A stretch of DNA of 64,000 nucleotides. Origin: Myxococcales bacterium. GTDB lineage: Bacteria > Myxococcota_A > Bradymonadia > UBA7976 > UBA1532. Below, piece after piece: positions 29,637 to 49,553 of this stretch. The stretch lies in assembly GCA_020633435.1 (NCBI GenBank), contig JACKDP010000001.1:517359-581358 (forward strand), given 5' to 3'. The notes under the pieces were generated by a model that saw only the letters and a program-made list of their open reading frames with translations, was not told where the DNA came from and did no database searches. Both the position numbers and the translations under genes were made by a program. The number at the start of each line of letters is the position of its first letter. The first letter of the stretch is position 1.

Positions 29637-29843
29637 TCAGGCGCGCCGGTAGAAGATCACGATGGTCAGGCAGTGGAACTGACGGTCGCTGGACTGGCGC
29701 ACCACGGTGTCGACCACCTGGATGTCGCCCTGCTGCTCGAGCCAGGTGGTGATCACCTCGCCGAGGTCCGCGCGCTCCATGGCCTTGGTGGCCGTGAAGA
29801 CCTTGACCGCCGTATAGCCCGCCGAGGGCGGGCCGTCCGTCAA
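29637..29843 (-). CDS. small hypothetical protein downstream of rpsU
   Basis: 68-aa ORF overlapping the rpsU stop by 4 nt; no recognisable motif. Confidence 0.35.
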   Translation of the reverse strand: MTDGPPSAGYTAVKVFTATKAMERADLGEVITTWLEQQGDIQVVDTVVRQSSDRQFHCLTIVIFYRRA

Positions 29844-30079
29844 GTACGGACCCGCTGCGCCCGACGCCGCTCCTTGCGGCGGCGACGCTCGGCCTCGCGC
29901 TGCTTGCGCTTCCGCTTGACCGAGGGCTTCTCGTAGAAGCGGCGGCGCTTCAGCTCCTTGTAGATGCCCTCATGGGCCACCTTGCGCTTGAGGGCCTTGA
30001 TGGCGCGCTCGACATTGTCACCTTCGACGGCGACCTCGAGGGGCCGAAGCACGAGCTCGTTCTGGCTCAAGGACATCAC
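29840..30079 (-). CDS. rpsU: 30S ribosomal protein S21
   Basis: KRRRFYEKPSVKRKRKQRE, basic C-terminus; GGAAGG RBS; start GTG 30079 or ATG 30076. Confidence 0.8.
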   Translation of the reverse strand: MMSLSQNELVLRPLEVAVEGDNVERAIKALKRKVAHEGIYKELKRRRFYEKPSVKRKRKQREAERRRRKERRRAQRVRT

Positions 30080-30140: not shown

Positions 30141-30170
30141 AGGATAGAGAGCCGGCCCTGAGGTGTCAAG
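30141..30170 (-). promoter_or_regulatory. sigma-70-like promoter for rpsU
   Basis: Minus strand reads CTTGACA-N17-TATCCT about 60 nt upstream of the rpsU start. Confidence 0.5.
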
Positions 30171-30264: not shown

Positions 30265-31194
30265 CTAGCGGCAGGCGGCGTTGTCGGGGGTGCTGCGGTT
30301 GACGGCGCCCATCTCTTCGATCACCGCCAGGCTGCTGCGCAGCTCGTCGCACTCGACCTGCCCATCGCCGTCCAGATCGAGGTTCAGCGGGGCCCCGCCC
30401 CGGCCGTCGACGCGCAGCATCACGAAGTGCCCCGGCGTCGGGCTGGGCACGATGTCGGCCCCCGCGCGGCACAGCGGGCTGGTGGCGTCGAGCACGCTCT
30501 GGTCGACGCGCACCGCGGCCACCCCGGCGAAGCGCCCCGGCGCCTCGCGCACGCCCTCCACCCGCACCCGCGTCCGCTGGGCCACCCGCACCTCGCAGAC
30601 GGGCTCGCCCAGGCCGTTCGTGGTCACGAACGTCACCCCCGGCTCCCCGTCGCCGTCGGCGTCCGTCACCCGCGGATCGTCCACCGCCGTCGGCGGCACC
30701 GCGTCGGCCCCGATGGCCGCCATGCCCCAGTAGTCGACGAACTCGCTGCCCAGGTAGGGGGCGCCCACGTCGTCGCCCAGCACATAGGCCGAGGTGTCGC
30801 GGGGCTCCAGGGCGTCCGCCACGGTGTCGGGCACCGTCGAGCGCAGCCCCCCCACCAGCGGGCTCAGCTCCCCGCGGCAGATCTTGAGCCGCTCCCGCAG
30901 CGCGCGCGCCCCGTCGCCGGCGTCCCCCTCCTCCAGCACGTCCAGCAGGTAGAAGTTCCAGACCAGGTTCTCCACCTGCGTGCCGATGGCCGACATGCAC
31001 TGCGGCCCCTCGACGAAGAGCACCCAGCGGCCCACCAGCGACGTCGCGCCGGCGTCCGCCTCCCCCGCCCCCGCCTCCCGGCGGCCCCCGTCCGCCACGC
31101 CCCCGTCGATCTGATCGGGGAAGTGGGACGTGCCCGCCGTCAGCTCCTCGCAGCCCAGCAGCGCCAGGGCCAGGCCGATCGCGCGCGCGCTCAT
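30265..31194 (-). CDS. lipoprotein, function unknown
   Basis: In-frame tail of ORF 30265..31599 from ATG 31194 (lipobox ALALLGC); ATG overlaps the upstream OMP stop. Confidence 0.55.
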   Translation of the reverse strand: MSARAIGLALALLGCEELTAGTSHFPDQIDGGVADGGRREAGAGEADAGATSLVGRWVLFVEGPQCMSAIGTQVENLVWNFYLLDVLEEGDAGDGARALRERLKICRGELSPLVGGLRSTVPDTVADALEPRDTSAYVLGDDVGAPYLGSEFVDYWGMAAIGADAVPPTAVDDPRVTDADGDGEPGVTFVTTNGLGEPVCEVRVAQRTRVRVEGVREAPGRFAGVAAVRVDQSVLDATSPLCRAGADIVPSPTPGHFVMLRVDGRGGAPLNLDLDGDGQVECDELRSSLAVIEEMGAVNRSTPDNAACR

Positions 31195-32579
31195 CAGAAC
31201 CTCCACCGCAGATCCACGGACGCCGCCACCAGGTAGCCGCCGTGGGTGTAGCCCGGGAAGCCCGGGGAGCCCGTCTGCAGACCCCGCGTCTCGGCCGCCG
31301 AGAGCAGCGGCGTGTCCTCCGCCAGGTCCGGCGACTCGTCGCAGAGCGCCCGCACCCCGGGCGCGCAGTCGGGGTAGGCCCCGCGCGCCTTGCGCGTCTC
31401 CTCGGTGAGGAGCGCCTGCACCTGGAAGGCGATGTCGAGCGTCAGGTCCTGGCCGAACACCTGCAGATCCCGCCCGGCCCCGAAGCCGAAGCCCACGCGG
31501 TCGTTGTCCACGTAGCTCGTCCGCCCCGTCTGGGTGGGCACCGGGCTGGGCGTGAACGAGACCCCCGCGCGGGCGAACGTGCGCTCCCCCACCGGCCACT
31601 CCAGCGCCGCCTTGGCGTCCACCGTGTCGTCGAAGCCCCCGGATTCATTGTGGTTGTCGGTGTAGCGGCTCCACGCGCGGTAGGTGCCCTCCAGGCTCGC
31701 CGTGAAGCCCCCCTCGGCCACCCAGGCCACGCCGAGCGTCGCCCGCAGGGGCGAGAAGGCCGTCACCAGGTCCAGCTCCTGGAAGACGACGCCCTGCTCC
31801 TCGTCGCCGCGCACCTGCACCTCGCTGCGCCCGTGGATGCGGGTGCGCACCTCGTCCTGGAACGCCACCCCCACCCGCAGCTGCTCGAAGGGCTGCACCT
31901 GCAGGCCCGCCGTCAGCGCGCGGCTGAACTCCGTCCCCACGCGCGCGTTGATGTCCACCTGCGTCAGGTCGGTGGCCGAGCGCGCGTAGACGGGCGCCGT
32001 CACCTTGGCCCCCGGCAGGATCATCAGCCCCAGCCCCATGGACAGCCAGCTCCGCAGCCGCCACGCCAGCGCGAAGGTGATGACCTCGCTCTCCAGGCGC
32101 TCCCCCAGCAGCTCGTAGTGCAGCCGGTTGGAGAAGGCCTGCTCGCGCTCGTCGGCGAAGTGGGTGTTCAGCGAGGCGAAGCCCTCGAACGGCACGAAGG
32201 CCGCCACGCCGACGGCCAGATCCTCGGAGAACGGGTGGGCGCTCAGGCCCAGCAGCGCCCCCGCCGTGCCCGGCGGCTCCACCGTGTCGGCGCGCGCCGA
32301 GGGGTTCGCCCCGTAGCCCTTGGGATCGTAGCCCAGGGGCCGCGGCGTCAGCAGGATGGACGTGCGGTTGAACAGGCCGGTGACGCCCACGATGAACGCG
32401 GACGGCGACTCCGTGAGGCCCGCGGGGTTGTGGAACGCCGCCATGGCGTCCCCCGCGAGGGCCGCCACGGCGCCGGCCATGGCCTGGCTGCGCGCGCCGG
32501 CCCCGAAGACGTCGAAGAGGTTGGCGTGGGCCGGCCCGGCGAGGGCGGTGGCGGCCAGGGTGAGCGCGAGGCGACGCAT
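31194..32579 (-). CDS. outer-membrane beta-barrel protein, FadL/TodX-like
   Basis: Signal peptide MRRLALTLAATALAGPAHA; ends with aromatic terminus ...DLRWRF. Confidence 0.65.
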   Translation of the reverse strand: MRRLALTLAATALAGPAHANLFDVFGAGARSQAMAGAVAALAGDAMAAFHNPAGLTESPSAFIVGVTGLFNRTSILLTPRPLGYDPKGYGANPSARADTVEPPGTAGALLGLSAHPFSEDLAVGVAAFVPFEGFASLNTHFADEREQAFSNRLHYELLGERLESEVITFALAWRLRSWLSMGLGLMILPGAKVTAPVYARSATDLTQVDINARVGTEFSRALTAGLQVQPFEQLRVGVAFQDEVRTRIHGRSEVQVRGDEEQGVVFQELDLVTAFSPLRATLGVAWVAEGGFTASLEGTYRAWSRYTDNHNESGGFDDTVDAKAALEWPVGERTFARAGVSFTPSPVPTQTGRTSYVDNDRVGFGFGAGRDLQVFGQDLTLDIAFQVQALLTEETRKARGAYPDCAPGVRALCDESPDLAEDTPLLSAAETRGLQTGSPGFPGYTHGGYLVAASVDLRWRF

Positions 32580-32646
32580 GGGCCCTCCAGGCGACAAGGG
32601 GCCGCGAGGTAGCACAGGCGCGGCCGGGCCGGGAAGCCCCGCCGCC

Positions 32647-34812
32647 TCACTGGATGATGATGCACCGCCCGTTGAGGCACTCCCGCGAGATGGGACACCG
32701 CGGCCCGCCGCCGCAGAGGCACTGCCCCGCCACGCAGGTGTCCGACCGGAGGTCGCACCCCAGCTCGAAGCCGTCGCCCTCGTCGACCGTGCCGTCGCAG
32801 TCGTCATCGGCGTTGTTGCAGTCCTCGCCCGAGGGCCCCCGCCCGGAGCACGCGCCGTAGACGCCATCCCGGCACACCTGCTCGCCTACCGTGCACACGC
32901 CGACGTCCGTCCCGCAGGGCCGCACCAGCGCCTCGTCGGTGCTGCCGTCGCAGTCGTCGTCCACGCCGTTGCAGGTCTCGGCGGGTACCGCGCCGCACTG
33001 CCCGCAGGCGTTCAGCGTGCCCTCGTCGGTCTGCCCGTCGCAGTCGTCATCGGCCCCGTTGCAGATCTCGTCTGGCACCCGGCCACAGGCGCCGCAGGCG
33101 TTCTGCACGCCCTCGTCCGTGCGCCCGTCGCAGTCGTCGTCGTCTCCGTTGCAGGTCTCCTCCGGCACCGCCCCGCAGTCGCCGCAGGCGTTCTGGACGC
33201 CCTCGTCCGTGCGCCCGTCGCAGTCGTCATCGACGCCGTTGCACGCCTCCGCGACGGGCCCCGTCTCGCCCTGGCACGCCCCCCAGCCGCCGCCATCGCA
33301 GGCCTCCTGGCCCTGCCGGCACCGCCCGACGCTGCTCCCGCACGCCCGCACGAGCCCCTCGTCCGTCCGCCCGTCGCAGTCGTCATCAACCCCGTTGCAG
33401 GCCTCCTGCCGCCCCGTCACCTCGCCCTCGCAGGCGCCGTAGCCCCCGCCGACGCAGCGCTGCACGCCCTGCCGGCACCGGCCCACGTCGCTGCCGCACG
33501 CGCGGTCCAGCCCCTCGTCCACGGCGCCGTCGCAGTCCTGGTCGCGCGCGTCGCAGGTCTCGGGCATCGGCCCCACCTGCCGCGCGCAGGCCCCGAACTG
33601 GTGATCCTGGCCGCAAGTCCGCGTTCCGGCTCGACAAATCCCCACGTCGGGCGCCCCCGGCCCCTCGTAGCAGGCCACCGTGTCGCCCGGGGTGCACCGG
33701 CACTGGCCGCCCTCGTCCACCGCGCCGTCGCAGTCGTCATCCTCGCCGTTGCACGCCTCCGGCCCCGGCACCACCGCGCCCTCGCAGCCGGCGCCGCACA
33801 CGGCCAGGCCGGGCCGGCACGCCCCCACCCCCGACGTCCCGTCGGGCCCCGGGTAGCACGGCACCGGCTCATCCACGACGCCGTCGCAGTCGTCGTCCTC
33901 GCCGTTGCACACCTCCACGGCCGCCTCCCCAGCCGCCGCCGTGCAGGCCACCTCGCCCTCCACGCACGCCGTCTCGCCCGCCACCGCGCAGGCCCCGACG
34001 CCGACCTCGCAGGGCTGCCCCACGCCGAAGTCCTCGTCCACCCGGCCATCGCAGTCGTCGTCCAGCCCGTTGCACGCCTCGTCCGTCGGCGCCCCCGGCT
34101 CGCCGTCGCACACGAGCCCGTCCGGCGTGCACCGCGGCCGCCCCTCCCGAGCGCAGGCCCCCACCCCCACCGGGCAGAGCGCCTCCGGATCCAGCACCGC
34201 CTCGTCCGTCCGCCCGTCGCAGTCGTCATCGGCGCCGTTGCAGCGCTCGTCCGCCGGCGGCACCTCCCCCTCGCAGGCCCCGAAGCGCATGGACGGCCCG
34301 CACCGCTGCTCGCCGGCCTGGCAGACGCCCACGCCGGCCTCCCCCGGCGCCCCCGAGAAGCAGGCCTGCCGGGTGCCGGGCTCGCAGGGCGCGCAGTCCA
34401 CCTCGTCCACCCGCCCGTCGCAGTCGTTGTCCACCTCGTCGCAGATCTCGGTGAGCGGCCGCTGGGCCCCCGCGCAGTCCCCCAGCCGGGCGTCCACGCA
34501 GGCGCGGATCCCCGCCCGGCAGATGCCGGTGCCCGCCTCGCTCGGCCCGCACCGCTGGTCGGCGTCCTCGTCCACCTCGCCGTCGCAGTCGTCGTCGAGC
34601 CCGTTGCAGGCCTCGGGCGGGCAGGCCGCCGCGTCGGGCCCCTGGTCCACCGGCGCCGCGTCGGCCACCGCGCCCTGGTCGGCCGGCGCCGGATCGCGCA
34701 CATGCCCCCCGAGCCCGCTGCGGAGCGCGTCGCCATCCGCCGTGCAGCCCGCGACCCAGACCGCCAGCAGGCAAAGCGCCCACCCCCTCCCGCCCCTGCG
34801 CACATCCGTCAC
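32647..34812 (-). CDS. MopE-like Cys-rich repeat lipoprotein
   Basis: Lipobox LLAVWVAGC; at least 14 repeats of CNGxDDDCDGxxDE. GTG start chosen at 34812 (GGGAG 7 nt upstream); 34803 is also possible. Confidence 0.7.
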   Translation of the reverse strand: MTDVRRGGRGWALCLLAVWVAGCTADGDALRSGLGGHVRDPAPADQGAVADAAPVDQGPDAAACPPEACNGLDDDCDGEVDEDADQRCGPSEAGTGICRAGIRACVDARLGDCAGAQRPLTEICDEVDNDCDGRVDEVDCAPCEPGTRQACFSGAPGEAGVGVCQAGEQRCGPSMRFGACEGEVPPADERCNGADDDCDGRTDEAVLDPEALCPVGVGACAREGRPRCTPDGLVCDGEPGAPTDEACNGLDDDCDGRVDEDFGVGQPCEVGVGACAVAGETACVEGEVACTAAAGEAAVEVCNGEDDDCDGVVDEPVPCYPGPDGTSGVGACRPGLAVCGAGCEGAVVPGPEACNGEDDDCDGAVDEGGQCRCTPGDTVACYEGPGAPDVGICRAGTRTCGQDHQFGACARQVGPMPETCDARDQDCDGAVDEGLDRACGSDVGRCRQGVQRCVGGGYGACEGEVTGRQEACNGVDDDCDGRTDEGLVRACGSSVGRCRQGQEACDGGGWGACQGETGPVAEACNGVDDDCDGRTDEGVQNACGDCGAVPEETCNGDDDDCDGRTDEGVQNACGACGRVPDEICNGADDDCDGQTDEGTLNACGQCGAVPAETCNGVDDDCDGSTDEALVRPCGTDVGVCTVGEQVCRDGVYGACSGRGPSGEDCNNADDDCDGTVDEGDGFELGCDLRSDTCVAGQCLCGGGPRCPISRECLNGRCIIIQ

Positions 34813-38762: not shown

Positions 38763-39357
38763 TGGCGTCGAACGCGGCGCCCTGCAAGTAGACGCCGCTG
38801 ATCCAGAAGTCGGCCAGCTTGTCGCCGTCCCAGTCGGACTCCACGAGCCGCGCCTTGACCAGGGTGCCGTCCTCCGCGAGCCGGTCGCGCAGCGCAACGC
38901 GACCCGCGAGGTCGAGTTCCGAGAACGTCGCCGACATCTCGGGGCTGACCGACATCAGACCGAACGAGAACTGCCCGATCTCGCCCATGACCGTGTAGAG
39001 ATCGAGGCCCATCGCGGGGACGGCGGCCAGCACCAGCAGGTCGGCTTCGACGGGATCGAGGCCATGCTCCTCACGCAGGTTGACCAGCGGCAGCGCAACC
39101 CCCGCCGCGGCGCTCGCCGCGATCCGGCGGTCGATCATGGTGCGCAGGTTGCCCTCCGCGGTGGCGAGGCGGGCGACCTTCTGCTTCGTCCGGCAGCACA
39201 CGCCGTCGGACTCCGCCGCGGCGTCGATCAGCCCCACGGCCTCGTCGGCTTCCTTGTCCGCCTCGATGCGGGCGCCAAGGTGGCGGCACCTGGCCTTCAC
39301 CCACCGGATCTCGTCCGCGAGGTGGTCGAGGGGGGTCGAGTACGCGAGGGTGTGCAT
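38734..39357 (-). CDS. hypothetical protein
   Basis: 207 aa from ATG 39357 with AAGGAG RBS; no recognisable motif. Confidence 0.45.
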   Translation of the reverse strand: MHTLAYSTPLDHLADEIRWVKARCRHLGARIEADKEADEAVGLIDAAAESDGVCCRTKQKVARLATAEGNLRTMIDRRIAASAAAGVALPLVNLREEHGLDPVEADLLVLAAVPAMGLDLYTVMGEIGQFSFGLMSVSPEMSATFSELDLAGRVALRDRLAEDGTLVKARLVESDWDGDKLADFWISGVYLQGAAFDAITGRAARPH

Positions 39358-39545
39358 GGCGGTGCTCCTTGCTCTCTGGGCCATGCCATCTACTACGCCT
39401 TCGGCCCCAGTCCTGAGCCCCTCCCCCGGCCCCCGGCGGCACCATCACGTCCCGATTTTTCGGGCTTTGACCCCGTTGCGGCGCGTGTCACCGCGCAGTA
39501 CAACCGCTGTGGCAACTTGCGGCAAACAACGGCGAGGACTGCACG

Positions 39546-39749
39546 GTGCCCGAGTACCTGACCATCGACGAGGTTTGCGAGCTTCTCCAGTTGGGCAAGC
39601 GCACCGTGTACGAGCTTGCCCGGACGGGCCGCTTGCCGGGCGCCGCGAAGATCGGCGGCCAGTGGAGGGTCAACCGGGCCAAGCTCGCCGCCTGGCTGGA
39701 GGCCGGGGGCGAGTTCGCCGCGGTCGAGGGGGGCGAGCGCGACGAATGA
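39546..39749 (+). CDS. excisionase/AlpA-family HTH DNA-binding protein
   Basis: LTIDEVCELLQLGKRTVYELARTGRLPGAAKIGGQWRV; stop overlaps the SNF2 start (ATGA). Confidence 0.65.
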   Translation: MPEYLTIDEVCELLQLGKRTVYELARTGRLPGAAKIGGQWRVNRAKLAAWLEAGGEFAAVEGGERDE

Positions 39750-42595
39750 CGACCCCCTACCATGCGCAGTTCTGGGCCTACACGTTGACCGTACAGGGGT
39801 CGCCGGACTCGGTGGACGGCCTGTCGCGGGCCATCTCGAACGCCCGCGTAGACCTGAACCCGCACCAGGTAGACGCAGCCCTGTTCGCCCTCAAGTCGCC
39901 GCTGTCGAAGGGCGTCATCCTCGCCGACGAGGTGGGCCTCGGGAAGACCATCGAGGCCGCCCTGGTGATCTCGCAGCGATGGGCGGAGCGCCGCAGGCAC
40001 ATCCTCGTCGTGGTGCCCGCCTCGCTGCGGAAGCAGTGGCAGCAGGAGTTGTGGGAGAAGTTCTTCATCCCCTCGGTGGTGCTGGAGCGCAAGTCGTGGA
40101 CGCGGCTCCAGGCCGAGGGCAAGCCCAACCCCTTCGACCTCGGCGATCAGGTCGTCATCTGCTCCTACTACTTCGCCGCCAAGCACCGGGAGGCCGTGGC
40201 CCACGTCCCGTGGGATCTGGCCGTCATCGACGAGGCCCACCGGCTGCGAAACGTCTACAAGAAGGGCAACAAGACGGCGAAGGCCCTGTCCGCGGGCCTG
40301 GCCCACGCCACGAAGCTCCTGCTGACCGCGACGCCGCTCCAGAACTCGCTGATGGAGTTGTACGGCCTCGCCAGCGTCATCGACCCGCACCTGTTCGGTG
40401 ACCCCATCTCCTTCCGCGAGCAGTTCGTCCGCGAGGCGGACGAGGGCGTGCGGAACCGGCTGTTGAAGCAGCGCATCGCCGAGGTCTGCCAGCGCACCCT
40501 GCGGCAGCAGGTGCTGGAGTACGTCCGGTTCACGGAGCGCATCCCGGTGACGCAGGAGTTCTTCGCCAGCGACGCCGAGCAGCGGCTCTACGACGAGGTG
40601 TCCGAGTACCTCCGCCGCGACACCCTGTACGGCCTCCCGTCGGCCCAGCGGACGCTGATGACGATGGTGCTGCGGAAGCTGCTGGCCTCGTCGTCCTTCG
40701 CCATCGGCGGCACCCTCGACGGCCTGTTGTACCGCCTCCGGCAAGTGCAAGAGGACGTGCGCAAGGGCACCGCGGTCGCCCTGCACGATGCCGTGGAGGA
40801 CGACTTCGAGACGGTGGACGAGATCGAGGACGACTGGGAGGAGGACGAGGCCACCGACGCCAACGGCGACGACATCGACCCCGCCCTGCTGGCCGACGAG
40901 ATCGCCATCATCGAGGCGTGCTCCAAGCTCGCCGCGGGCATCCATTCCAACGCCAAGGGCGACGCCCTCCTGCGGGCACTCGCGCAGGCGTTCGAGCAGG
41001 CCGAGGCCGTGGGCGCCGCGAAGAAGGCGGTGGTGTTCACGGAGTCCCGGCGCACGCAGGACTACCTGTACCGGCTGCTGACCGCGAACGGCTACGAGGG
41101 CCGCGTCGTGATGATCAACGGCAGCAACAACGACGAGGCCGCCAAGGCCGTCTACGCGGAGTGGATGACCCGGCACGCGGACGACGGGGTGCCCACCGGC
41201 GCCCGCGCCGTCGATGTCCGGGCCGCCATCACCGAAGCGTTCAAGACCGACGCCACCATCCTGCTGGCGACCGAGGCCGCCGCGGAAGGCGTCAACCTCC
41301 AGTTCTGCTCCCTGGTCTTCAACTACGACTTGCCCTGGAACCCCCAGCGGGTCGAGCAGCGGATCGGGCGCTGCCACCGCTACGGCCAGACCCATGACGT
41401 GGTGGTCGTCAACTTCGTCAACGAGCGCAACGCCGCCGACCGCCGCGTCCTCGACCTGCTGTCCGAGAAGTTCAGGCTGTTCGAGGGGGTCTTCGGCGCC
41501 TCCGACGAGGTGCTCGGCGCCATCGAGTCCGGCGTGGACATCGAGCGGCGCATCGCGGCCATCTACCAGGGCTGCCGCACCGCCGAGGACATCGCCGCCG
41601 CCTTCGACGACCTGCGGGCCGACCTCGACGAGCAGATCACCGCGCAGATGAGCGAGACGCGGCAGCGCCTGCTCGACCACTTCGACGAGGACGTGCAGGC
41701 CCGCCTCCGCGTCCACCGCGACCTGGCCCAGGCGTCGCTCGACGAGAGGGGCCGGATGCTGTTGAACCTCACCCGGCACGAGCTTGGGGACGACGCCTCC
41801 TTCGCACCTGACCGGCCCCGGTTCGAGTACCACGGCACCGCGGCTCGTCGCGGGTGGTACAGCCTCGACTGGAAGGCGGCGGACGCCGAGGGCCTGGTCT
41901 TCTACCGCATCGACCACCCCCTCGCGCAGGGCATCGTCGAGCAGGCCCGCCAGCGACAGCTTCCCGTGCAGCACCTGGCCTTCGACTACGGCGCCTACGG
42001 CACGTCGGTCGCGGTGCTGGAGCCGTACATCGGTCGCCGGGGCTGGCTGGCGTGCAGCCTGCTGACGGTGAACTCGGTGGCCGACGAGCAGTTCGTCGTC
42101 CTGGCCGCGGTGACCGACGACGGCGAGGTGCTCGACGCCGAGTGGTGCCGACGCCTCATGCGCATCGGAGCCGCCGCCGAGGGAACGCCCGAGGCGCCCG
42201 CGGATCTGGAGCCCGCGGTCACCGGCCAGGTCGAAGGCCACCTGCGCGACGTGGAGGCCCGCAACGGGCGCTACTTCGACGCCGAGGTGTCGAAACTCGA
42301 CCGCTGGTCAGACGACCTCAAGCTCGGCCTGGAGCGGGAGTTGAAGGACTTGGACGCCGAGATCCGGGCGAAGCGCAAGGAGTCCGCGGTCGCCATCTCA
42401 CTGGCGGACAAGCTCACGGCGCAGCGGGACATCAAGGCGCTGGAGCAGCGCCGGAACCGCAAGCGGCGGGATCTGTACGAGGAACAGGACAAGATCGACG
42501 AGCAACGGGCAGCACTCATCGACGGGATCGAGCGGCAGCTTCGCACCACACATGCGGTGCAGCGCCTGTTCACCGTCCGGTGGAGCATCCGATAG
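39746..42595 (+). CDS. SNF2-family helicase
   Basis: 949 aa: LADEVGLGKTIEA (motif I), VIDEAHRLRN (DEAH), LLLTATPLQNSL, C-terminal helicase motifs and coiled-coil tail. Confidence 0.85.
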   Translation: MTTPYHAQFWAYTLTVQGSPDSVDGLSRAISNARVDLNPHQVDAALFALKSPLSKGVILADEVGLGKTIEAALVISQRWAERRRHILVVVPASLRKQWQQELWEKFFIPSVVLERKSWTRLQAEGKPNPFDLGDQVVICSYYFAAKHREAVAHVPWDLAVIDEAHRLRNVYKKGNKTAKALSAGLAHATKLLLTATPLQNSLMELYGLASVIDPHLFGDPISFREQFVREADEGVRNRLLKQRIAEVCQRTLRQQVLEYVRFTERIPVTQEFFASDAEQRLYDEVSEYLRRDTLYGLPSAQRTLMTMVLRKLLASSSFAIGGTLDGLLYRLRQVQEDVRKGTAVALHDAVEDDFETVDEIEDDWEEDEATDANGDDIDPALLADEIAIIEACSKLAAGIHSNAKGDALLRALAQAFEQAEAVGAAKKAVVFTESRRTQDYLYRLLTANGYEGRVVMINGSNNDEAAKAVYAEWMTRHADDGVPTGARAVDVRAAITEAFKTDATILLATEAAAEGVNLQFCSLVFNYDLPWNPQRVEQRIGRCHRYGQTHDVVVVNFVNERNAADRRVLDLLSEKFRLFEGVFGASDEVLGAIESGVDIERRIAAIYQGCRTAEDIAAAFDDLRADLDEQITAQMSETRQRLLDHFDEDVQARLRVHRDLAQASLDERGRMLLNLTRHELGDDASFAPDRPRFEYHGTAARRGWYSLDWKAADAEGLVFYRIDHPLAQGIVEQARQRQLPVQHLAFDYGAYGTSVAVLEPYIGRRGWLACSLLTVNSVADEQFVVLAAVTDDGEVLDAEWCRRLMRIGAAAEGTPEAPADLEPAVTGQVEGHLRDVEARNGRYFDAEVSKLDRWSDDLKLGLERELKDLDAEIRAKRKESAVAISLADKLTAQRDIKALEQRRNRKRRDLYEEQDKIDEQRAALIDGIERQLRTTHAVQRLFTVRWSIR

Positions 42596-42603
42596 GAGCG
42601 GGG

Positions 42604-44427
42604 ATGTCGAAGAAGACGAAGCTGGAACTGACCTGGATCGGCAAGGACAAGCGGCCCCGCCTGGAGCCGCGCATCCTGCTCGAAGATCCCGAACTGAGCT
42701 ACGCCGCCGACCATCGGGTTCGGCAGGGCGACATCTTCGACAACATGCTGATCCACGGAGACAACCTGCTGGCTTTGAAGGCGCTGGAGCAGGACTTCAC
42801 CGGCGCCTTCAAGTGCGTCTACATCGACCCTCCGTTCAACACCCAGCAGGCGTTTGAGCACTACGACGATGGCGTGGAGCACTCGGTCTGGCTGTCACTC
42901 ATGCGCGAGCGCCTCTCCATCGTCCACCGGCTCATGCACCCCGAGGGGACGCTGTTCGTCCACATCGACGACAACGAGCTTGGCTACCTGATCGTCCTCC
43001 TCGACGAGGTGTTCGGGCGCACCAACCGCGTGTCCATCGTCACATTCAAGCAGGGCTCGGCGACCGGCCACAAGGCCATCAACCCCGGCTGCGTGACGAC
43101 CACGAACTTCGTGCTGATGTACGCCAAGGACAAGGCAGCCTGGAAGCCGCGGAGGGTCTTCACGGCTAGGGAGCGAGACAATCGCTACAACCAGTTCATT
43201 CCGAACATCGGCGACCACCACTCCAAGTGGCGAATCGTGACGCTGATGACCGCCTTCGCCGCCAGCCAGGGGGTCACGGAGACACAGGCCAGGGGTCTGG
43301 CTCGCAAGCAGCCCGACCAACTGGACGAGTTCGTGAAGGACAACGGGCCGAGCGTGGTGCGTCTCGCAAGGCCGTCCTACGACGCCGTCAGCAAGGCTGC
43401 CCAGGCGCTCATCGACGAGTCGAACGCGAACCCCGAAGTGGTGTTCCACCTCCCGCGGGAGGGGCACAAGGACTTCTACTTCATCCGGGGCGAACGAATC
43501 CTGTTCTACAAGGACAAGCTCAGGGAGATCGACGGGCAGTACGTTGCGGGTGAGCCGCTCACGACGCTCTGGGACGACCTCCTCTCCAACAACTTGCACA
43601 ACGAAGGTGGGGTCAGCTTCCCCAAGGGGAAGAAGCCCGAAGCCCTGATCAAGAGGGTCATCGACCTGTCCACCGAGCCCGGTGACTGGGTGCTCGACTC
43701 GTTCGCAGGCTCGGGCACGACGGGGGCGGTGGCCCACAAGGCCGGTCGAAGGTGGGTGATGGTCGAACTCGGTGACCACTGCCATACCCATGTCCTTCCC
43801 CGGCTCCGAGCGGTTATTGACGGGGCCGATTCCAGCGGGAGCACGCAGGCAACCCGATGGAAAGGCGGCGGCGGCTTCCGCTTCTGCCGCCTCGCGCCCT
43901 CCCTACTGGAGGAGGACAAGTGGGGCAACTGGGTCATCAACCGGGCCTACAACAAGGAGATGCTGGCGGAGGCCATGTGCAAGATCGAGGGCTTCCGCTA
44001 CGAGCCGAGCCCGACCATCTTCTGGATGCACGGCCAGTCCACCGAGACGGACTACCTCTACGTCACCACGCAGACCCTGACCCACGAGCAGTTGCAGGTC
44101 ATCAGCGCGGAGGTCGGTGACGAGCGCACGTTGCTCATCTGCTGCTCGGCCTTCCGAGCGCGGCTCGACCAGTTCCCGAACCTCACGGTGAAGAAGATCC
44201 CCGCAGCGGTGCTCGAACGCTGCGAGTGGGGCAAGGACGACTACTCGCTGAACGTCCAGACGGTCATGGGAGAGGAGCCCGAGGCGCCCGAGCCTGAACC
44301 CGACCAGTCCGCGGGCGCCACCGTGCCGCCGCCATCGTCGAAGAAGCGCAAGGGCCGCAAGCCGAAGATGCAGGAGTTGCCGCTGTTCGCCGCGGCCCAC
44401 CATGGCAAGTCGGGAGGTGACCAGTGA
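42604..44427 (+). CDS. Type III R-M Mod-like N6-adenine DNA methyltransferase
   Basis: DPPF motif (CVYIDPPFNT) precedes the SAM motif (VLDSFAGSGTTG). Confidence 0.85.
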   Translation: MSKKTKLELTWIGKDKRPRLEPRILLEDPELSYAADHRVRQGDIFDNMLIHGDNLLALKALEQDFTGAFKCVYIDPPFNTQQAFEHYDDGVEHSVWLSLMRERLSIVHRLMHPEGTLFVHIDDNELGYLIVLLDEVFGRTNRVSIVTFKQGSATGHKAINPGCVTTTNFVLMYAKDKAAWKPRRVFTARERDNRYNQFIPNIGDHHSKWRIVTLMTAFAASQGVTETQARGLARKQPDQLDEFVKDNGPSVVRLARPSYDAVSKAAQALIDESNANPEVVFHLPREGHKDFYFIRGERILFYKDKLREIDGQYVAGEPLTTLWDDLLSNNLHNEGGVSFPKGKKPEALIKRVIDLSTEPGDWVLDSFAGSGTTGAVAHKAGRRWVMVELGDHCHTHVLPRLRAVIDGADSSGSTQATRWKGGGGFRFCRLAPSLLEEDKWGNWVINRAYNKEMLAEAMCKIEGFRYEPSPTIFWMHGQSTETDYLYVTTQTLTHEQLQVISAEVGDERTLLICCSAFRARLDQFPNLTVKKIPAAVLERCEWGKDDYSLNVQTVMGEEPEAPEPEPDQSAGATVPPPSSKKRKGRKPKMQELPLFAAAHHGKSGGDQ

Positions 44428-47400
44428 ACCGCCTCGTCAACACCATCTCGGGTCGTCTGAGCCTCCGGCCCCCGCAGCGCCAGTCGCTGGAGATCCTCGA
44501 CCGCATCTGCGAGATCGCTGACCCGACCAAGGCGACCGATCTCGCAACCGCGCTCGGGATCATCAAGTCCGAGTACCCGTCGGTCACCGACTTCGAGCGG
44601 GACTTCCCCTCGCTGTGCTTCGCCCTCGCCACCGGCGTCGGCAAGACCCGGCTCATGGGCGCCTTCATCAGCTACCTCTACCTGACCAAGCGAAGCCGCC
44701 ACTTCTTCGTGCTGGCGCCCAACCTGACCATCTACAACAAGCTGATCGCCGACTTCACCCCCGGCACGCCCAAGTACGTCTTCCAGGGGATCTCGGAGTT
44801 CGTGACCGCCCCGCCGGTCATCATCACCGGCGACAACTACGAGAGCGGCGTCGGCGTCCGAGAGGAGGCCCGGCGCCAGATGGGCCTGTTCCGGCCCGGC
44901 GGCGAGGATGCCGTCCACATCAACGTCTTCAACATCAGCAAGTTCAACAAGGACACGGGGGGCAGGAAGGGCTCGCCCAGGATGCGGCGCCTGTCGGAGT
45001 ACATCGGTGAGAGCTACTTCGACTACCTGGCCGGGCTCGACGACCTGGTGGTGCTCATGGACGAGGCCCACCGCTACCGCGCCGACGCGGGTATGAAGGC
45101 CATCAACGAGTTGAAGCCCATCTTGGGCCTGGAGTTGACGGCGACCCCCTTCACCGAGTCGGCGAAGGGGCCGGTGGCCTTCGGCAACGCCATCTACGCC
45201 TACTCGCTGGCCGAGGCCATCGTGGACGGGTTCGTGAAGGAGCCCGCGGTCGCCACCCGCAAGGACTTCGACGCCAGCCAACTCGACGACGCGAAGTTGG
45301 AACGCATCAAGCTGGAGGACGGCGTGCGCTTGCACGAGCAGGTCAAGGCCGACCTCCAAGCCTACGCCGCCAACACCGGGCGCCCCTACGTCAAGCCGTT
45401 CATGCTGGTCATCGCCCGCGACACGACGCACGCCTCGGCCCTGATCGACCTGTTCAAGTCCGAGACGTTCTTCGAGGGGCGCTACGCCGACCGCGTGATC
45501 GAGGTTCACTCGGCCCTCAAGGGCGAGGAGAAGGAGGAGACGGTTGAGCGGCTGCTGGCCGTGGAAGACCCCGCCGAGCAGACGGAGATCGTCATCCACG
45601 TCAACATGCTCAAGGAGGGGTGGGACGTAACGAACCTCTACACCATCGTCCCGCTGCGGGCCGCCAACGCCCGCACCCTCATCGAGCAGTCCATCGGTCG
45701 CGGCCTGCGGCTGCCCTACGGCAAGCGTGTCCGCAAGTACGGCCTGCCCCCCACCCACCCTGCCGACCGGCTCACCATCGTCGCCCACGACAAGTTCCAA
45801 GAGATCGTGGACGAGGCCAACCGCGGTGACTCCATCATCCGCCGCATCGACACCATCTACATCGACCCGGAGGAGGCCGCCGACGCTCCGAAGCCGGTCG
45901 AGGTGCCCCCGCTGGTCGAGCAGATTCTTGGCGGAGCCGACCGGCCTACGGTGCCGGGCCTCGGCCCCGCCCCCGCGGGTGACCCGGCCCAGGGCACCGC
46001 CCCCACCCTGCCGACCAAGAAGACGCCGACGTTCCTGACGCCCACGGCGAAGGCGGTGGCGAAGGCGACGCTGACGGCGATCACCAAGAAGACCACGTTG
46101 CCGTCGGCGAAGACGCTTCTGCAACCGGAGCAGCAGAAGAAGCTGGTCGAGGAGGTGAAGGCGCAACTTCCCGACCAGCAGGAGCTACCGGGCATCGAGT
46201 CGGAGATCGAGGAGGTCGTCAAGCAGGCCACCGAAGCCTACGTTGACCTCTCCATCGACATCCCCGAGGTGACCGTCGTGCCCACCGGCGAGGTCACCAT
46301 CGTCTACGCCGACTTCGACCTCGACACGTCCAAGCTGCCTGCGCTCCAGCCCGTCGAGCGGGACATCTACATCCAACACCTGGCGAGCCACGAGCAGCAG
46401 CAGTTGTCTTCCGGCGGTGGTGGTGTCGGCTACGAGCGGCGCCTGGAAGATCACGTTGTCCGGGCGCTCATCGACTTCGACGACGTGGACTACGACGGCA
46501 ACGCCGACCTGCTCTACAAGCTCGCGGGCCAGATGGTCGCCCACCTCCAGGGCTACCTGCCCGACGAGGAGGCCGTGAAGAACGTGCTGGTCTACTACCA
46601 GTCGCGGATCGGCAACCTCGTCCACGGCCAGATGCTGGCCCACCGGCACGAGTTGACGACCGGCTACGAGGTGAAGGTGCTGTCCGGGCACCGTCCGCTC
46701 CAGCCCTCGGTGATCAAGCTCAAGCCGAGCGAGTCCCCCCGGAACTTCCGGGCGCCGGTGGACGACAAGCGCCGCATCCCGCAGATGGTGTTCGGCGGCT
46801 TCTCGAAGTGCTTGTACCCGCTCCAGAAGTTCCACTCGGACTCGGAGCGCCGGTTCGCGGTGCTGCTGGAGATGGACAAGGCCGTGCAGAAGTGGGTGAA
46901 GCCTGCGCGGGCGAACTTCCAGATCGTCCTCAAGGGCGGCTCGCTCTACGAGCCGGACTTCGTGGTCGAGGCCGACGACGCCTTCTACATCGCCGAGGTC
47001 AAGGCCGAGGGCATGGTGCAGGAGGCCGACGTGCTGGCGAAGGCCGAGGCCGCCGCGGTGTGGTGCAGGTCGGCGACGCAGGAGGGGGCGGGCGCCAAGC
47101 CCTGGCACTACCTGCTCATCCCCGCGGACAAGATCGCCGAGAACGCCTCGTTGGCGTGGCTGGCGAAGCAGTACGAGCACAAGGCCAGCGCCCCCGCCGA
47201 GGTCGTGTCCGAGGACGCGGGCGCCAAGGTGCTGCCGTTCAAGAAGCTGGAGGGCACGGAGATCAGGCCCTTCGAGAACTGCGTGCCGCTCTACGCCGAC
47301 CTCAGGATCGCCGCGGGCCGCTTCGGCGAGGAGCTGGCCGTGGACGCGGTGCCCCAGCAGGGCGAGGTGGAGAACCCCGAGGACTACGAGTGGGTCGCCT

Positions 47401-47744
47401 ACCGGGGGAGTTCCCGGCCCCGTCGCGGCCTGTTCGTAGCCCAGGTGGTCGGCGAGTCCATGAACAAGCGCATCCCCAACGGCGCCTGGTGCGTGTTCAA
47501 CCTCGAACACGGGGCCGATGGCGAAGGTGAGATCGTCCTCGCCCGGCACGACGAGATCCACGACGGCGACCTCGGCCAGTTCACCGTGAAGTTCTACCAG
47601 CGCGAGGTGCTCGACGACGACGGCGTGCGGATCACGCTGCGGCCCTCGTCCAGCGACCCGCAGTTCAAGAAGCCCATCGTGCTGGAGAACCTGGCCGAGG
47701 GCGACCTGCGGATCGTGGCCGAGTTCGTCGAGGTGCTGCGGTAG
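44424..47744 (+). CDS. Type III Res-like helicase-endonuclease fused to a LexA/UmuD-like S24 domain
   Basis: 1106 aa: Walker A (ATGVGKTRL), DEAH (VLMDEAHRY), PD-(D/E)xK-like nuclease motif (EPDFVVEADDAFYIAEVKAEG), then about 150 aa resembling an S24 peptidase (GESM, TVKF); GTG overlaps Mod stop. Confidence 0.8.
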   Translation: MNRLVNTISGRLSLRPPQRQSLEILDRICEIADPTKATDLATALGIIKSEYPSVTDFERDFPSLCFALATGVGKTRLMGAFISYLYLTKRSRHFFVLAPNLTIYNKLIADFTPGTPKYVFQGISEFVTAPPVIITGDNYESGVGVREEARRQMGLFRPGGEDAVHINVFNISKFNKDTGGRKGSPRMRRLSEYIGESYFDYLAGLDDLVVLMDEAHRYRADAGMKAINELKPILGLELTATPFTESAKGPVAFGNAIYAYSLAEAIVDGFVKEPAVATRKDFDASQLDDAKLERIKLEDGVRLHEQVKADLQAYAANTGRPYVKPFMLVIARDTTHASALIDLFKSETFFEGRYADRVIEVHSALKGEEKEETVERLLAVEDPAEQTEIVIHVNMLKEGWDVTNLYTIVPLRAANARTLIEQSIGRGLRLPYGKRVRKYGLPPTHPADRLTIVAHDKFQEIVDEANRGDSIIRRIDTIYIDPEEAADAPKPVEVPPLVEQILGGADRPTVPGLGPAPAGDPAQGTAPTLPTKKTPTFLTPTAKAVAKATLTAITKKTTLPSAKTLLQPEQQKKLVEEVKAQLPDQQELPGIESEIEEVVKQATEAYVDLSIDIPEVTVVPTGEVTIVYADFDLDTSKLPALQPVERDIYIQHLASHEQQQLSSGGGGVGYERRLEDHVVRALIDFDDVDYDGNADLLYKLAGQMVAHLQGYLPDEEAVKNVLVYYQSRIGNLVHGQMLAHRHELTTGYEVKVLSGHRPLQPSVIKLKPSESPRNFRAPVDDKRRIPQMVFGGFSKCLYPLQKFHSDSERRFAVLLEMDKAVQKWVKPARANFQIVLKGGSLYEPDFVVEADDAFYIAEVKAEGMVQEADVLAKAEAAAVWCRSATQEGAGAKPWHYLLIPADKIAENASLAWLAKQYEHKASAPAEVVSEDAGAKVLPFKKLEGTEIRPFENCVPLYADLRIAAGRFGEELAVDAVPQQGEVENPEDYEWVAYRGSSRPRRGLFVAQVVGESMNKRIPNGAWCVFNLEHGADGEGEIVLARHDEIHDGDLGQFTVKFYQREVLDDDGVRITLRPSSSDPQFKKPIVLENLAEGDLRIVAEFVEVLR

Positions 47745-48168: not shown

Positions 48169-48245
48169 TCCCTTAGTTTCGAGCATTACTTGGGGTGAGG
48201 GATTTGCTCGCTTGCCTGGGTAGCGTGCCTCGCAGGAGGTGCAAC

Positions 48246-49553
48246 ATGCCCAACTTCCCGAGCCGCATCGACATCGCCAACTCGCCCGAGTATTTCCCGA
48301 TCACGGCGCTCATCGCCGCGGGCCTGTGGCCCGACCTGACTCCGCCCGCCAAGGCCCTGCTGCCCGTCCTGTGGGACTTCCACCGGGAGTACCCCGACGC
48401 CTGCCACCCGAACCGGAAGACCCTCGCCCGGCTGTCGGGCATCAGCCCGCCCTCCGTGTCGAACGCCCTGACGGTGCTGGAGGACATCGGCATCGTGCAG
48501 ACGATCCAGACGCCGGGGCCGAGGCCGAACACCTACAAGCTCAAGTGGACGAATCTCCGGGCGCCGAAGAAGGCTGCCGCCGACACCGGATCGCCCTACC
48601 GGCGTCCGAGTGCGGACTGGGAACTGCACATGGGGACTGACGCCGAGGGCCATGCGGTCGCCAAGTACGAGCGCAAGGGGGGTGGGCTCCACCGCATGTC
48701 CGACGGCTGCTTCATCCGGGGCCAGGTCGAGATGGTGATCCACGACCTGCTCGTGGCCTGGGGCGTTCCCCACTGGTCGGAGGTCGGGTACTGCGACCTC
48801 GGCATCAAGCTCCGGCACGCGAAGTCCGGCGACCTCAACCGGCAGGCCACCGTGGACTTCGTGGTGGCGCCGGGCTTGCTCGTCGAGCGCCTCGGCCTGC
48901 CAGCGACCCAGGGGTCGGCGAAGAAGTACCGGGCCAAGTCCGCCGCGAAGATGAAGGCCGCCCGGAAGGCCGGGTGGACGGTGCTGACCATCGAGCCTGA
49001 CCAGCGGCCCGGCGACTGGCTGCTGGAGCCCATCAGGAAGGCGTGGGCCGACGCGACCATCGACGAGGCGACCCGCCTCCGGCGGCTCCTCCAAGGCGCT
49101 GGGAAGCACGAGGAGTCGCACGGTCCGAGCCGGAAGCTCGACGCCCACATCGAAGATGCGAAGGCCCGGCTGGCGGGCAAGAAGGAGCCCCGCAAGAGCC
49201 GCGGCCTGACCATGCAGAAGCGCGGCGAACATGGGTTCCCCGTGACGTACCGCTGCGACCCCATCATCGTGCTGATGGAGCAGGCCCGCCCCGCACCCGA
49301 GCCCGAGGATGACCTCGACGACTGGTTCGACGAGGTGCCGAGCGCCTACGAGCCGCAGCGCCCGCCCGACCTGCCCGCTCCCGACGAGAGGATGCTCGGG
49401 CGGCTCCGCGACCTGGACGACGAGATCGCCGACCTCGACGACCAGATGGCGGCCCTCGACGATGACAGCGACGACTACCAGGCCCTGCTGACGCAGAAGT
49501 GGGAACTCGAAGGGAAGAAGGGCGACCTGGAGGCCCAGTGCTACATGCGGTGA
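48246..49553 (+). CDS. hypothetical protein with N-terminal winged-helix-like region (possible replication/maintenance function)
   Basis: AGGAGG RBS before ATG 48246; HTH-like NRKTLARLSGISPPSVSNALTVLEDIGIV; acidic C-terminal tail. Confidence 0.45.
   Translation: MPNFPSRIDIANSPEYFPITALIAAGLWPDLTPPAKALLPVLWDFHREYPDACHPNRKTLARLSGISPPSVSNALTVLEDIGIVQTIQTPGPRPNTYKLKWTNLRAPKKAAADTGSPYRRPSADWELHMGTDAEGHAVAKYERKGGGLHRMSDGCFIRGQVEMVIHDLLVAWGVPHWSEVGYCDLGIKLRHAKSGDLNRQATVDFVVAPGLLVERLGLPATQGSAKKYRAKSAAKMKAARKAGWTVLTIEPDQRPGDWLLEPIRKAWADATIDEATRLRRLLQGAGKHEESHGPSRKLDAHIEDAKARLAGKKEPRKSRGLTMQKRGEHGFPVTYRCDPIIVLMEQARPAPEPEDDLDDWFDEVPSAYEPQRPPDLPAPDERMLGRLRDLDDEIADLDDQMAALDDDSDDYQALLTQKWELEGKKGDLEAQCYMR

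Follow-up and report, generated by a model that had tools for sequence, protein, structure and literature searches.

The 64,000-nucleotide stretch of Myxococcales bacterium DNA analysed here (the window) contains three co-directional genes, A, B, and C, encoding a cysteine-rich lipoprotein, an outer membrane barrel, and a second lipoprotein, and this arrangement raises the question of which of these genes belong together and what they do. The original prediction had read the three as one cell surface module for uptake or metal binding. All three open reading frames were present on the minus strand across the predicted span, and all coordinates below refer to that strand. Gene A (32647..34812; ORF, translation, and Pfam) encodes a 721-aa acidic, cysteine-rich repeat lipoprotein with PF11617 modules. 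Gene B (31194..32579; Pfam Toluene_X and a family profile searched against the PDB) encodes a 461-aa outer membrane barrel of the FadL/TodX family, and gene C (30265..31194; translation, family searches, and an AlphaFold model) encodes a 309-aa lipoprotein of an undescribed family. The cluster is flanked by a divergently oriented Band_7 gene upstream of A and by rpsU.

The spacer between A and B measures 67 nt (32580..32646), carries GGAGGG ahead of the B ATG, and is kept in the closest relative of the locus (L007); a pattern scan detected neither a terminator-like hairpin nor a sigma-70-like site in it. A may be cotranscribed with B and C. The B stop and the C start have a single base in common (TTC TGA / ATG, i.e., TGATG), in place of the 4-nt ATGA overlap that had been proposed together with a C start one codon too far upstream. 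A sigma-70-like promoter (30141..30169; TTGACA-17-TATCCT, 10/12 matches) of the next unit was found by a pattern scan in which 0.1 such sites were expected by chance, and the rpsU ORF, separately promoted, follows it on the same strand. Therefore, the 3′ limit of the cluster was set at 30265. No hits were obtained when the window was scanned for Rfam families and tRNAs, which argues against the involvement of an RNA element. Alignment of the regions upstream of B for a shared promoter yielded only a short TGCTA-containing stretch in common, which was unconvincing.

Comparison with other loci separated the three genes. A B-type gene was located directly upstream of C in all 19 metagenome loci that had a close full-length C and readable upstream DNA. 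The pair was overlapping or closely spaced in L001, L003, L005, L007, L008, L014, and L015, and in all seven the downstream gene was confirmed as a C-family member by hmmsearch, with the identity of B falling from 65% to 30% and the flanking genes otherwise unrelated. An eighth such locus (L012) was found outside the metagenome scan. On these comparisons, the conserved unit at the locus is B plus C, a predicted two-gene outer membrane module. The third gene did not follow this pattern: A was present only in the window and in L007, where the two genes are likewise co-directional and A precedes B by 67 nt, while L001 displays the same Band_7 / B / C synteny with just 150 nt in place of A. Other genes with the MopE-type motif near a B-C pair were confined to L025 and L034, on the opposite strand. 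We therefore rejected A as a regular third member, since it is absent from nearly all B-C loci, and with it the view of the three genes as a single conserved module; A is a lineage-specific addition ahead of the pair and dispensable for the module. One fairly close C member (L020) had FabF, not FadL, upstream. The invariant partnership of C with B had been missed in the original prediction.

The family searches assigned B to FadL and A to PF11617, as had been anticipated. B matched Pfam Toluene_X (FadL/TodX/OMPP1, PF03349) with 57.2 bits against a cutoff of 29.7, over profile positions 5 to 383 of 421. A profile built from 43 B homologues retrieved, among the PDB matches listed down to 1e-9, the Pseudomonas aeruginosa FadL homologue 3DWO (9.8e-16), Escherichia coli FadL (1T16; 1.7e-13), CymD (1e-11), and TodX and TbuX (approximately 5e-10), all of which belong to the same Pfam family; with the single B sequence, phmmer reached only an E value of about 0.1 at low identity to solved FadL-type proteins. 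The alignment of the profile with these proteins spans about 350 residues and takes in the NPA hatch motif, and the N termini were of comparable length. A signal peptide with signal peptidase I cleavage at AHA/NLFD was read from the sequence (32523..32579; A19 is nearly invariant in the alignment), and the protein ends in RWRF, i.e., with an aromatic residue. N51-P52-A53 (32421..32429) corresponds to the NPA motif found in the N-terminal hatch of FadL; N51 and A53 are kept in at least 90% of the 43 homologues, and the motif aligns with NNPAAM of 3DWO. As judged from these profile matches, B is a member of the FadL family. The NCBIfam equivalog for AupA alkane uptake scored below its cutoff (17.9 versus 840 bits).

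B differs from the solved FadL-type proteins by a conserved insertion of about 55 residues that contains a disulfide and precedes the last strand (31239..31409, between the last two strands; C405...C413 and GLQTGxPGFPG). Nearly all homologues retain the insertion, even at 34% identity, and it falls outside the region that can be aligned to solved FadL structures; by analogy with the FadL topology, it would form extracellular loop L7. The GLQ(T/S)xNPG motif is still kept in P0075, a B relative whose locus (L016) has no C gene. The loop need not, therefore, be a docking site, and we rejected it as a strict marker of partnership with C.

C carries a signal peptide and a lipobox, LALLG-C15 (31150..31194), in which C15 is kept in at least 90% of 123 family members; a lipobox was present in most of the members listed. 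The family has no Pfam or NCBIfam model, and C gave no Pfam match, including to DUF1329. A full HMMER scan returned 825 clusters at an E value of ≤1e-3. Word-index searches had recovered only 7 and 9 proteins, badly understating the family, and a genome scan with alignment A2 had recovered only 4 loci. A cluster look-up of ten representatives showed that every named member was a "hypothetical protein" from a metagenome, with no cultured organism among them. An AlphaFold model computed from a 6-sequence alignment (pLDDT of 37) was discarded, and the 123-sequence alignment was needed to obtain a confident one (pLDDT of 91.4, pTM of 0.82). In this model, C is predicted to be a long-stranded up-and-down β-barrel, and comparison of the model with solved structures produced no significant whole-protein match. 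Thus, a family of more than 800 sequence clusters that lacks a Pfam or NCBIfam model and a solved homologue now has a confident model and a functional hypothesis.

Conservation pointed to three sites in C. G55-R-W57 (31024..31032) opens the first long strand of the model and R261 is located on the last, and G55, W57, and R261 are kept in at least 90% of the 123 sequences; by sequence and strand position, this arrangement resembles the calycin signature, in which a G-x-W of the first strand packs against a basic residue of the last. The nearest comparisons we can name for C are calycin-type barrels (lipocalin/Blc, avidin, and metalloprotease inhibitors) and YceI. Sequence similarity to lipocalins was not found, as Pfam lipocalin models matched 0 of the 123 members and hhalign of the family against the Blc lipocalin returned a probability of 0.3%, i.e., no relationship. 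A putative calcium-binding loop of the DxDxDG type, D178-A-D180-G-D182-G183 (30646..30663), contains an invariant D178, and D180, D182, G183, P185, and G186 are kept in at least 90% of the 123 sequences. The third site is an EF-hand-like loop, DLDGDGQVECDEL (30331..30381), followed by a helix (residues 282 to 287 in the model); Pfam EF-hand matches occurred in 52/123 members, all below threshold (14.8 versus 25.4 bits for EF-hand_1). Lysine at position +2, an inner membrane retention signal in Myxococcus xanthus (PMC3222651), is absent from both C and A; if that rule applies to the host organism, neither lipoprotein would be retained at the inner membrane.

Taken together, we consider the chances about even that the pair consists of a FadL channel and a partner lipoprotein that binds hydrophobic ligands. 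B would act as a transport-type FadL channel that passes hydrophobic molecules across the outer membrane and would be built as a barrel of 14 strands with a hatch at the N terminus. C, translated from a start codon that overlaps the B stop codon, would be a lipid-anchored protein with three likely disulfides and two loops of a calcium-binding type that presumably bind calcium. Barrels of this general type serve soluble proteins as containers for hydrophobic ligands, and the cargo might be fatty acids or similar lipids. C could hand this cargo to the channel or receive it from the channel, possibly while docked on B at its last extracellular loop, which is conserved and stapled by a disulfide. 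To our knowledge, FadL channels have so far been studied as stand-alone proteins, and we know of no dedicated lipoprotein partner gene for fadL, todX, or tbuX, whereas the B gene is coupled to one. The near-constant pairing of a FadL subfamily with one particular lipoprotein gene would suggest that hydrophobic molecules cross the outer membrane by a two-component route. The bacteria concerned include predatory, lipid-scavenging lineages. Of the earlier reading as an uptake or metal-binding module, cell envelope transport stays plausible, with B and C tightly coupled, while MopE-type metal binding by A, which lacks the copper site, is not supported.

Two described systems are close to this arrangement. 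In M. xanthus, which belongs to the same broad phylum as the host organism, a mutant in the fadL gene MXAN_7040 does not take up a palmitate analogue, and this gene appears to share a transcript with the adjacent lipoprotein gene MXAN_7039 (PMC4048283; bioRxiv 10.64898/2026.08.28.747804). The outer membrane contains large amounts of both proteins (PMC3222651, PMC4048283, bioRxiv 10.64898/2026.08.28.747804); however, the reported order is lipoprotein and then fadL, whereas B precedes C here. In the second system, a DUF1302 barrel gene is followed by a DUF1329 lipoprotein gene, as in B-C. DUF1302/DUF1329 genes show fitness phenotypes on fatty esters, and the Pseudomonas pair PP_0765/PP_0766 has been linked to growth on these compounds (bioRxiv 10.1101/2020.07.04.188060). 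B, however, is of the FadL family and not a DUF1302 protein, and C has no detectable DUF1329 match.

More distant members of the C family occurred next to other proteins. One adjoins a Blc lipocalin (Lipocalin_2, 4e-46), one (L017) follows a DUF1302-like barrel at the place where the DUF1329 lipoprotein normally sits, one follows an SRPBCC-like protein (a match below the Pfam cutoff), one follows FabF (the L020 member named above), and one is fused to a PHB-depolymerase-type esterase. We count these contexts in favor of a ligand-binding partner lipoprotein. A broader proposal, which we put forward only tentatively and hold to be doubtful, is that the C family comprises unrecognized calcium-dependent surface receptors for hydrophobic ligands, which would serve FadL channels as caps or feeders, in much the way that SusD serves SusC. 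Such receptors would occur widely among uncultured bacteria of the Myxococcota and Bradymonadia type, and paralogous subfamilies would have been taken up by other lipid-handling systems (DUF1302 barrels and lipocalin clusters).

An alternative would be a structural complex like BamG-BamH of Bacteroidota, in which B is a FadL-derived scaffold that holds C, and perhaps A, at the surface or aids outer membrane biogenesis, without transporting small molecules. BamG, a FadL homologue, grips the surface lipoprotein BamH via extracellular loops, and the genes of the paralogous pair Bt1785/Bt1786 are adjacent, as are B and C (PMC12578637). BamH is the only documented partner lipoprotein of a FadL homologue that we found, and it belongs to an unrelated system, the BAM complex of Bacteroidota; its binding to BamG is also a precedent for a contact such as the one suggested between C and B. 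The highly conserved extracellular loop insertion in B would be in keeping with such a scaffold, as would the genes for secreted or lipid-anchored repeat proteins that adjoin the pair in several lineages (A in the window, a collagen-like gene in L003, and a Cys/Gly-rich lipoprotein gene in L001 and L021). B also matched the NCBIfam BamG model (E value of 0.0023) and, through its profile, chain F of PDB entry 9HIV, deposited simply as "Outer membrane protein" (E value of 0.006), but both matches were weak, and the BamG score of 17.1 bits lies far from the cutoff of 250. What distinguishes BamG from FadL proteins of the transport type is a conserved N-terminal extension, about 10 to 12 residues long, which plugs the lateral opening (PMC12578637). 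No such extension is present in B: profile position 36 aligns with residue 15 of 3DWO, and the mature N terminus matches that of P. aeruginosa FadL position by position in the alignment. C, in turn, was unrelated to BamH in every comparison run and showed no similarity to any known BAM lipoprotein, and the phylum also differs. We therefore regard a purely structural role as unlikely.

A second alternative reverses the direction of transport, with B as a PorV-like or outward lipid channel fed by an inner membrane ABC exporter and C as the carrier of exported hydrophobic material or as a tether for secreted proteins. In one clade (L005, L024, L026, and L027), genes for an ABC ATPase, an ABC-2 permease, and a protein of about 213 to 224 aa precede B and C, and a membrane protein gene follows, which matched Pfam Rhomboid in L005, the one locus of the clade that was scanned. 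With an ABC-2 exporter on one side of the pair and a rhomboid gene on the other, export fits as well as import. A distant C member flanked by a DUF1302 barrel and a polytopic membrane protein of 829 aa could be read the same way; however, the window and most other loci have no ABC and rhomboid neighbors. Two NCBIfam PorV models matched B weakly (E value of 2e-6), but these matches cover only about 45 N-terminal residues within the shared hatch and score far under their cutoffs (26.9 versus 325 and 23.6 versus 90 bits). Moreover, the FadL-family transport described in the cited literature (E. coli FadL and M. xanthus MXAN_7040) is uptake, and we assign export a low probability compared with a channel and its ligand-binding partner.

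The remaining gene, A, had prompted the metal-binding interpretation. It begins with GTG, 8 nt downstream of a GGGAG ribosome-binding site, and its sequence reads as a signal peptide and lipobox, MTDVRRGGRGWALCLLAVWVAG-C23 (LAVWVAG-C23; 34744..34812), with Thr at +2 and Ala at +7. Pfam PF11617 (Cu-binding_MopE) matched in 11 stretches with 158.6 bits against a cutoff of 27 (E value of 3.8e-47). A regular-expression search counted 13 exact copies of C-x5-CDGxxDE, fewer than the 14 or more previously proposed, and a module table and alignment defined 13 modules (32650..34608), in each of which the motif is followed by 2 to 6 more cysteines. Internal modules always contain an even number of cysteines (4, 6, or 8). 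The protein has 82 Cys, 100 Asp, and no Lys, and about 150 acidic residues.

The link to MopE/CorA of methanotrophs was limited to the short acidic cysteine motif on which PF11617 was built, a model that accounts for only a minor part of the MopE/CorA sequence (PMC6189053). In those proteins, copper is bound by two His and a kynurenine from an oxidized Trp (PMC3423442, PMC3912023), and crystal structures of MopE* and CorA have been described (PMC3912023). We looked for this site in A, and its residues were missing: the whole protein contains 2 His and 3 Trp, two of the Trp lie in the signal peptide, and the 2 His and 1 Trp of the mature protein (about 700 residues) are all outside the repeat modules. 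PDB searches returned no chain for full-length A at an E value of ≤1 and none for a 142-aa segment or the module profile at an E value of ≤10, although HMMER composition filters may hide weak matches in both cases, and homology to the MopE*/CorA β-sandwich domain beyond the motif was not found in them. A is thus most likely not a MopE-like copper protein. It is very improbable that the three genes form a module for metal acquisition, with surface capture of copper or another metal by A and import through B and C: the strong PF11617 match, the cation-binding capacity expected of so many acidic residues, and the placement of A ahead of B in two loci stand against the lack of the copper site and of A itself elsewhere, and FadL channels pass hydrophobic molecules, not ions.

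The 13 tandem disulfide-rich modules and the lipid anchor are features of A that MopE/CorA do not share, and the acidic, all-oxygen motif presumably suits calcium better than copper. A is most likely an extended protein of the surface or matrix, stabilized by calcium and composed of 13 acidic modules knotted by disulfides. Teneurins have a similar motif in their Cys-rich region (PMC3278476). For annotation, "Cu-binding_MopE" matches in myxobacterial repeat proteins need not mean copper binding. Tandem Repeats Finder also detected repeats at the DNA level inside A (32931..33595), a 90-bp unit in 3.5 copies and a 156-bp unit in 2.5 copies with 76 to 80% matches, which indicates recent duplication of modules.

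Genes A (721-aa Cys-rich acidic repeat lipoprotein; 32647..34812), B (461-aa outer-membrane barrel of the FadL/TodX family; 31194..32579) and C (309-aa lipoprotein; 30265..31194) all lie on the minus strand and together span 30265..34812. A Band_7/SPFH gene on the plus strand is divergent from the cluster on the high-coordinate side of gene A. At the other end, rpsU (29840..30076, minus strand) follows a strong sigma-70-like promoter of its own (TTGACA-17-TATCCT; 30169..30141, minus strand; 0.1 expected by chance), located 96 nt past the C stop codon. Therefore, the cluster comprises at most three genes. The 67-nt gap between A and B displayed neither a terminator-like hairpin nor a sigma-70-like site in a pattern scan. 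The B stop and C start codons have one base in common (TGATG); thus, the two genes overlap as predicted, but by this single base and not by ATGA. Directly after rpsU comes a conserved 68-aa ORF (29637..29843, minus strand) whose start overlaps the rpsU stop codon, and this pair, with a 78-aa rpsU product, was also found in L007, the nearest relative of the window. A 200-aa lipoprotein with eight Cys (28870-29472, plus strand), encoded after queC and queE and convergent with the rpsU unit, keeps the same position in L007.

The closest relatives of the window were metagenome-assembled genomes labelled 'Myxococcales bacterium', 'Bradymonadia bacterium' and 'bacterium ABC2.71'. Genomic context was taken for B homologues of 65%, 47%, 45%, 39% and 30% identity and for C homologues of 78% and 49% identity. 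In every fetched locus, B was followed, with an overlap or within 20 nt, by a gene of about 280 to 325 aa, which hmmsearch with a C-family profile identified as a C homologue (E values of 1e-31 to 1e-126); the flanks of the pair were otherwise unrelated (EF-G, ribosomal proteins, glycosyltransferases and others). The same pair occurred in a locus from a genome-collection scan (L012). A metagenome scan yielded 40 further loci, and a B-type FadL gene was located directly upstream in 19/19 of those with a close, full-length C and readable upstream DNA; some of these contigs are close kin of one another. Gene A was present in the window and L007. Another relative, L001, keeps the AhpC - x - Band_7 | B | C synteny and has only 150 nt at the A position, and the only two cases of MopE-motif genes near the pair outside the window and L007 were both on the opposite strand. 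Accordingly, B and C together make up the conserved functional unit, with gene A as a lineage-specific addition. The original prediction of a three-gene uptake or metal-binding module is confirmed in its observations, with minor corrections, and half right in its interpretation: the B-C pair holds, while A is not part of the conserved unit.

Gene C is a lipoprotein as predicted (lipobox LLG-C15), and no Pfam or NCBIfam family matched it. A word-indexed search returned seven relatives; with a six-sequence profile, a full HMMER scan collected 825 clusters at E≤1e-3, of which 174 reached E≤1e-10. Most of the members listed are 270 to 330 aa long with a recognisable lipobox, and all named ones are 'hypothetical protein' entries from metagenomes. 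Among 123 members, C106, D178 and C282 are invariant, and C15, G55, W57, G157, P168, D180, D182, G183, P185, G186, R207, G214, G224 and R261 are at least 90% conserved; close relatives have six Cys in common, not counting the lipid-anchor Cys. Two loops are of the calcium-binding type, namely DxDxDG (178-183) and the EF-hand-like DLDGDGxVxCxE (272-288); the latter gives sub-threshold EF-hand matches in 52 of the 123 members. An AlphaFold model built from the 123-sequence alignment (pLDDT 91.4, pTM 0.82) displayed a barrel whose strands are very long (55-69, 72-93, 96-110, 186-192, 198-218, 221-237 and 255-261), as well as a loop insertion and a short helical tail. By sequence and strand position, G-x-W in the first strand and an Arg in the last are reminiscent of the calycin signature. 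Foldseek with the model returned no significant match, and hhalign found no sequence relationship between the C family and a lipocalin. Therefore, on the basis of the model, C is best regarded as an undescribed family whose barrel is predicted to be calycin-like, rather than as a lipocalin. A conserved, unannotated partner family for a known channel family is the new element here, of moderate novelty.

More distant C members have three Cys, lack the N-terminal tether region and are not beside a B-type FadL. In L045 (4970-7912), as well as in L042, L046 and L047, three tandem 3-Cys paralogues immediately follow a Blc lipocalin gene (Lipocalin_2, 4e-46). Single members follow an SRPBCC/polyketide-cyclase-type protein (weak, below cut-off) or a FabF-type ketoacyl synthase, and one is located between a DUF1302 outer-membrane barrel (30.7 bits versus 23.2) and an 829-aa polytopic membrane protein. 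DUF1302 usually pairs with a DUF1329 lipoprotein, and in Pseudomonas this pair shows fitness defects when fatty esters are the substrate (bioRxiv 10.1101/2020.07.04.188060). Fusions also occur, of one C member to a PHB-depolymerase-type esterase and of others to Ig-like Big_1 domains. The associations of distant members, in single or few cases each, all involve the handling of lipids or hydrophobic compounds.

The product of gene B has a signal peptide with its cleavage site following AHA and a C-terminal RWRF, and it clears the Pfam Toluene_X threshold, in agreement with the predicted FadL assignment. A profile of 43 homologues matched the Pseudomonas aeruginosa FadL homologue 3DWO (1e-15), E. 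coli FadL (1.7e-13), CymD, TodX and TbuX. The alignment with 3DWO begins at the N-terminal hatch, placing N51-P52-A53 opposite NNPAAM. A family-specific insertion (about 55 residues) separates the last two strands of B and contains a conserved pair of Cys and the near-invariant GLQTGNPGFPG; by standard FadL topology, we infer this insertion to be the last extracellular loop. More distant relatives keep this motif without the Cys pair; one of them (P0075) belongs to a locus without a C partner (L016).

With moderate confidence, we propose that B would work as a FadL-type channel and that C, its dedicated partner, would bind hydrophobic ligands, with translational coupling setting a fixed B:C ratio and A serving as an optional surface protein. 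This model fits, by analogy, the situation in Myxococcus xanthus, where the fadL gene MXAN_7040 is required to take up a palmitate analogue and appears to be cotranscribed with the abundant outer-membrane lipoprotein MXAN_7039 (PMC3222651, PMC4048283, bioRxiv 10.64898/2026.08.28.747804). The likeness is one of gene pairing rather than of shown homology, and the reported order of lipoprotein and fadL genes is reversed relative to B-C. One clade of the pair (L005, 5603-11633; L024, L026 and L027) displayed the order ABC ATPase, ABC-2 permease, a protein of about 213 to 224 aa, B, C and a 414- to 429-aa membrane protein (Pfam Rhomboid match in L005, the one scanned), which may represent a larger envelope system around B-C. 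With this arrangement, an export or secretion device remains an alternative, though an unlikely one, as the NCBIfam PorV model stayed far under its cut-off for gene B; the same was true of the BamG, AupA and FilD models. A structural complex like BamG/BamH appears similarly improbable: in BamG, a FadL homologue and BAM subunit of Bacteroidota, an N-terminal extension of about 10 to 12 residues plugs the lateral opening, unlike in transport-type FadL (PMC12578637), and no such extension was found in the alignment of gene B to solved FadL. Because it lacks this extension, gene B looks like a transport-type member.

The channel-partner model leaves gene A as an optional component. Its predicted 721-aa product was borne out (GTG start with an upstream GGGAG ribosome-binding site, basic N terminus, lipobox VAG-C23), and it contains 82 Cys, 100 Asp, 54 Glu and no Lys. 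The motif C-x5-CDGxxDE occurs 13 times, short of the 'at least 14' repeats first counted, and each copy marks the start of a module, which is 30, about 52 or about 66 residues long. Cys counts of 4, 6 or 8 in the twelve internal modules point to internal disulfides; the C-terminal module has 9 Cys. Tandem repeats of 90 bp and 156 bp were detected at the DNA level with 76 to 80% identity; therefore, some modules were duplicated recently. The repeat class is common in the phylum, and gene A alone is an ordinary member. The L007 orthologue (GCA_041389985.1, 6454-8541) was called as two fragments of 134 and 422 aa, and its sequence runs on through all three frames by several frameshifts, reflecting either gene decay or misassembly of repeats with very high G+C content.

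The expected MopE-type repeat was recovered in gene A by Pfam PF11617 (158.6 bits). As a lead, we presume that its motif is similar to the calcium cage in LDL-receptor class A repeats. In MopE and CorA, copper is bound by two His together with a Trp-derived kynurenine, whereas calcium is bound at a separate site through monodentate acidic side chains (PMC3423442, PMC3912023). MopE-like metal acquisition by the cluster is highly improbable, as the modules contain no copper-site residues, the two His and one Trp of mature A all lying outside them, and no PDB chain matched; the MopE-type metal-binding reading of A is not supported. Teneurins carry a comparable acidic Cys motif in their Cys-rich region (PMC3278476). 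The most economical reading of the sequence is that A would be a calcium-stabilised, disulfide-knotted, extended lipoprotein of the surface or matrix. At position +7 it has Ala, which has been reported as the signal that sorts M. xanthus FibA to the matrix (PMC3222651); applying this rule to the present organism is speculative.

Secreted or lipid-anchored repeat proteins adjoining B-C differ between lineages. L003 (5789-7904) encodes a 551-aa collagen-triple-helix protein and a 150-aa lipoprotein upstream of the pair, whereas downstream of the pair, L001 (6359-7126) and L021 (3218-4003) encode a 23-Cys lipoprotein of about 255 aa that includes a Gly-rich region.

The G+C content is about 75% in the window up to about 38 kb, and between 38000 and 54000 it drops from about 0.75-0.79 to 0.65-0.70. 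This region looks like an integrated defence island: it encodes a DrmD-like SNF2 helicase (38999..42595; PADLOC DrmD, 7e-203), an 857-aa ORF (41854..44427), a type III restriction enzyme that ends in an S24 peptidase domain (44421..47744; REase_III, 7e-221), an HTH protein (48177..49553) and a tyrosine integrase (51982..53202). The whole 64-kb window contains no tRNA gene. A 1291-aa regulator (14628-18503, minus strand) combines AAA_16, TPR/MalT-like, sigma-54 activator and HTH_8 domains, and a separate gene near it encodes an 897-aa U32 collagenase-type peptidase (10266-12959, plus strand).
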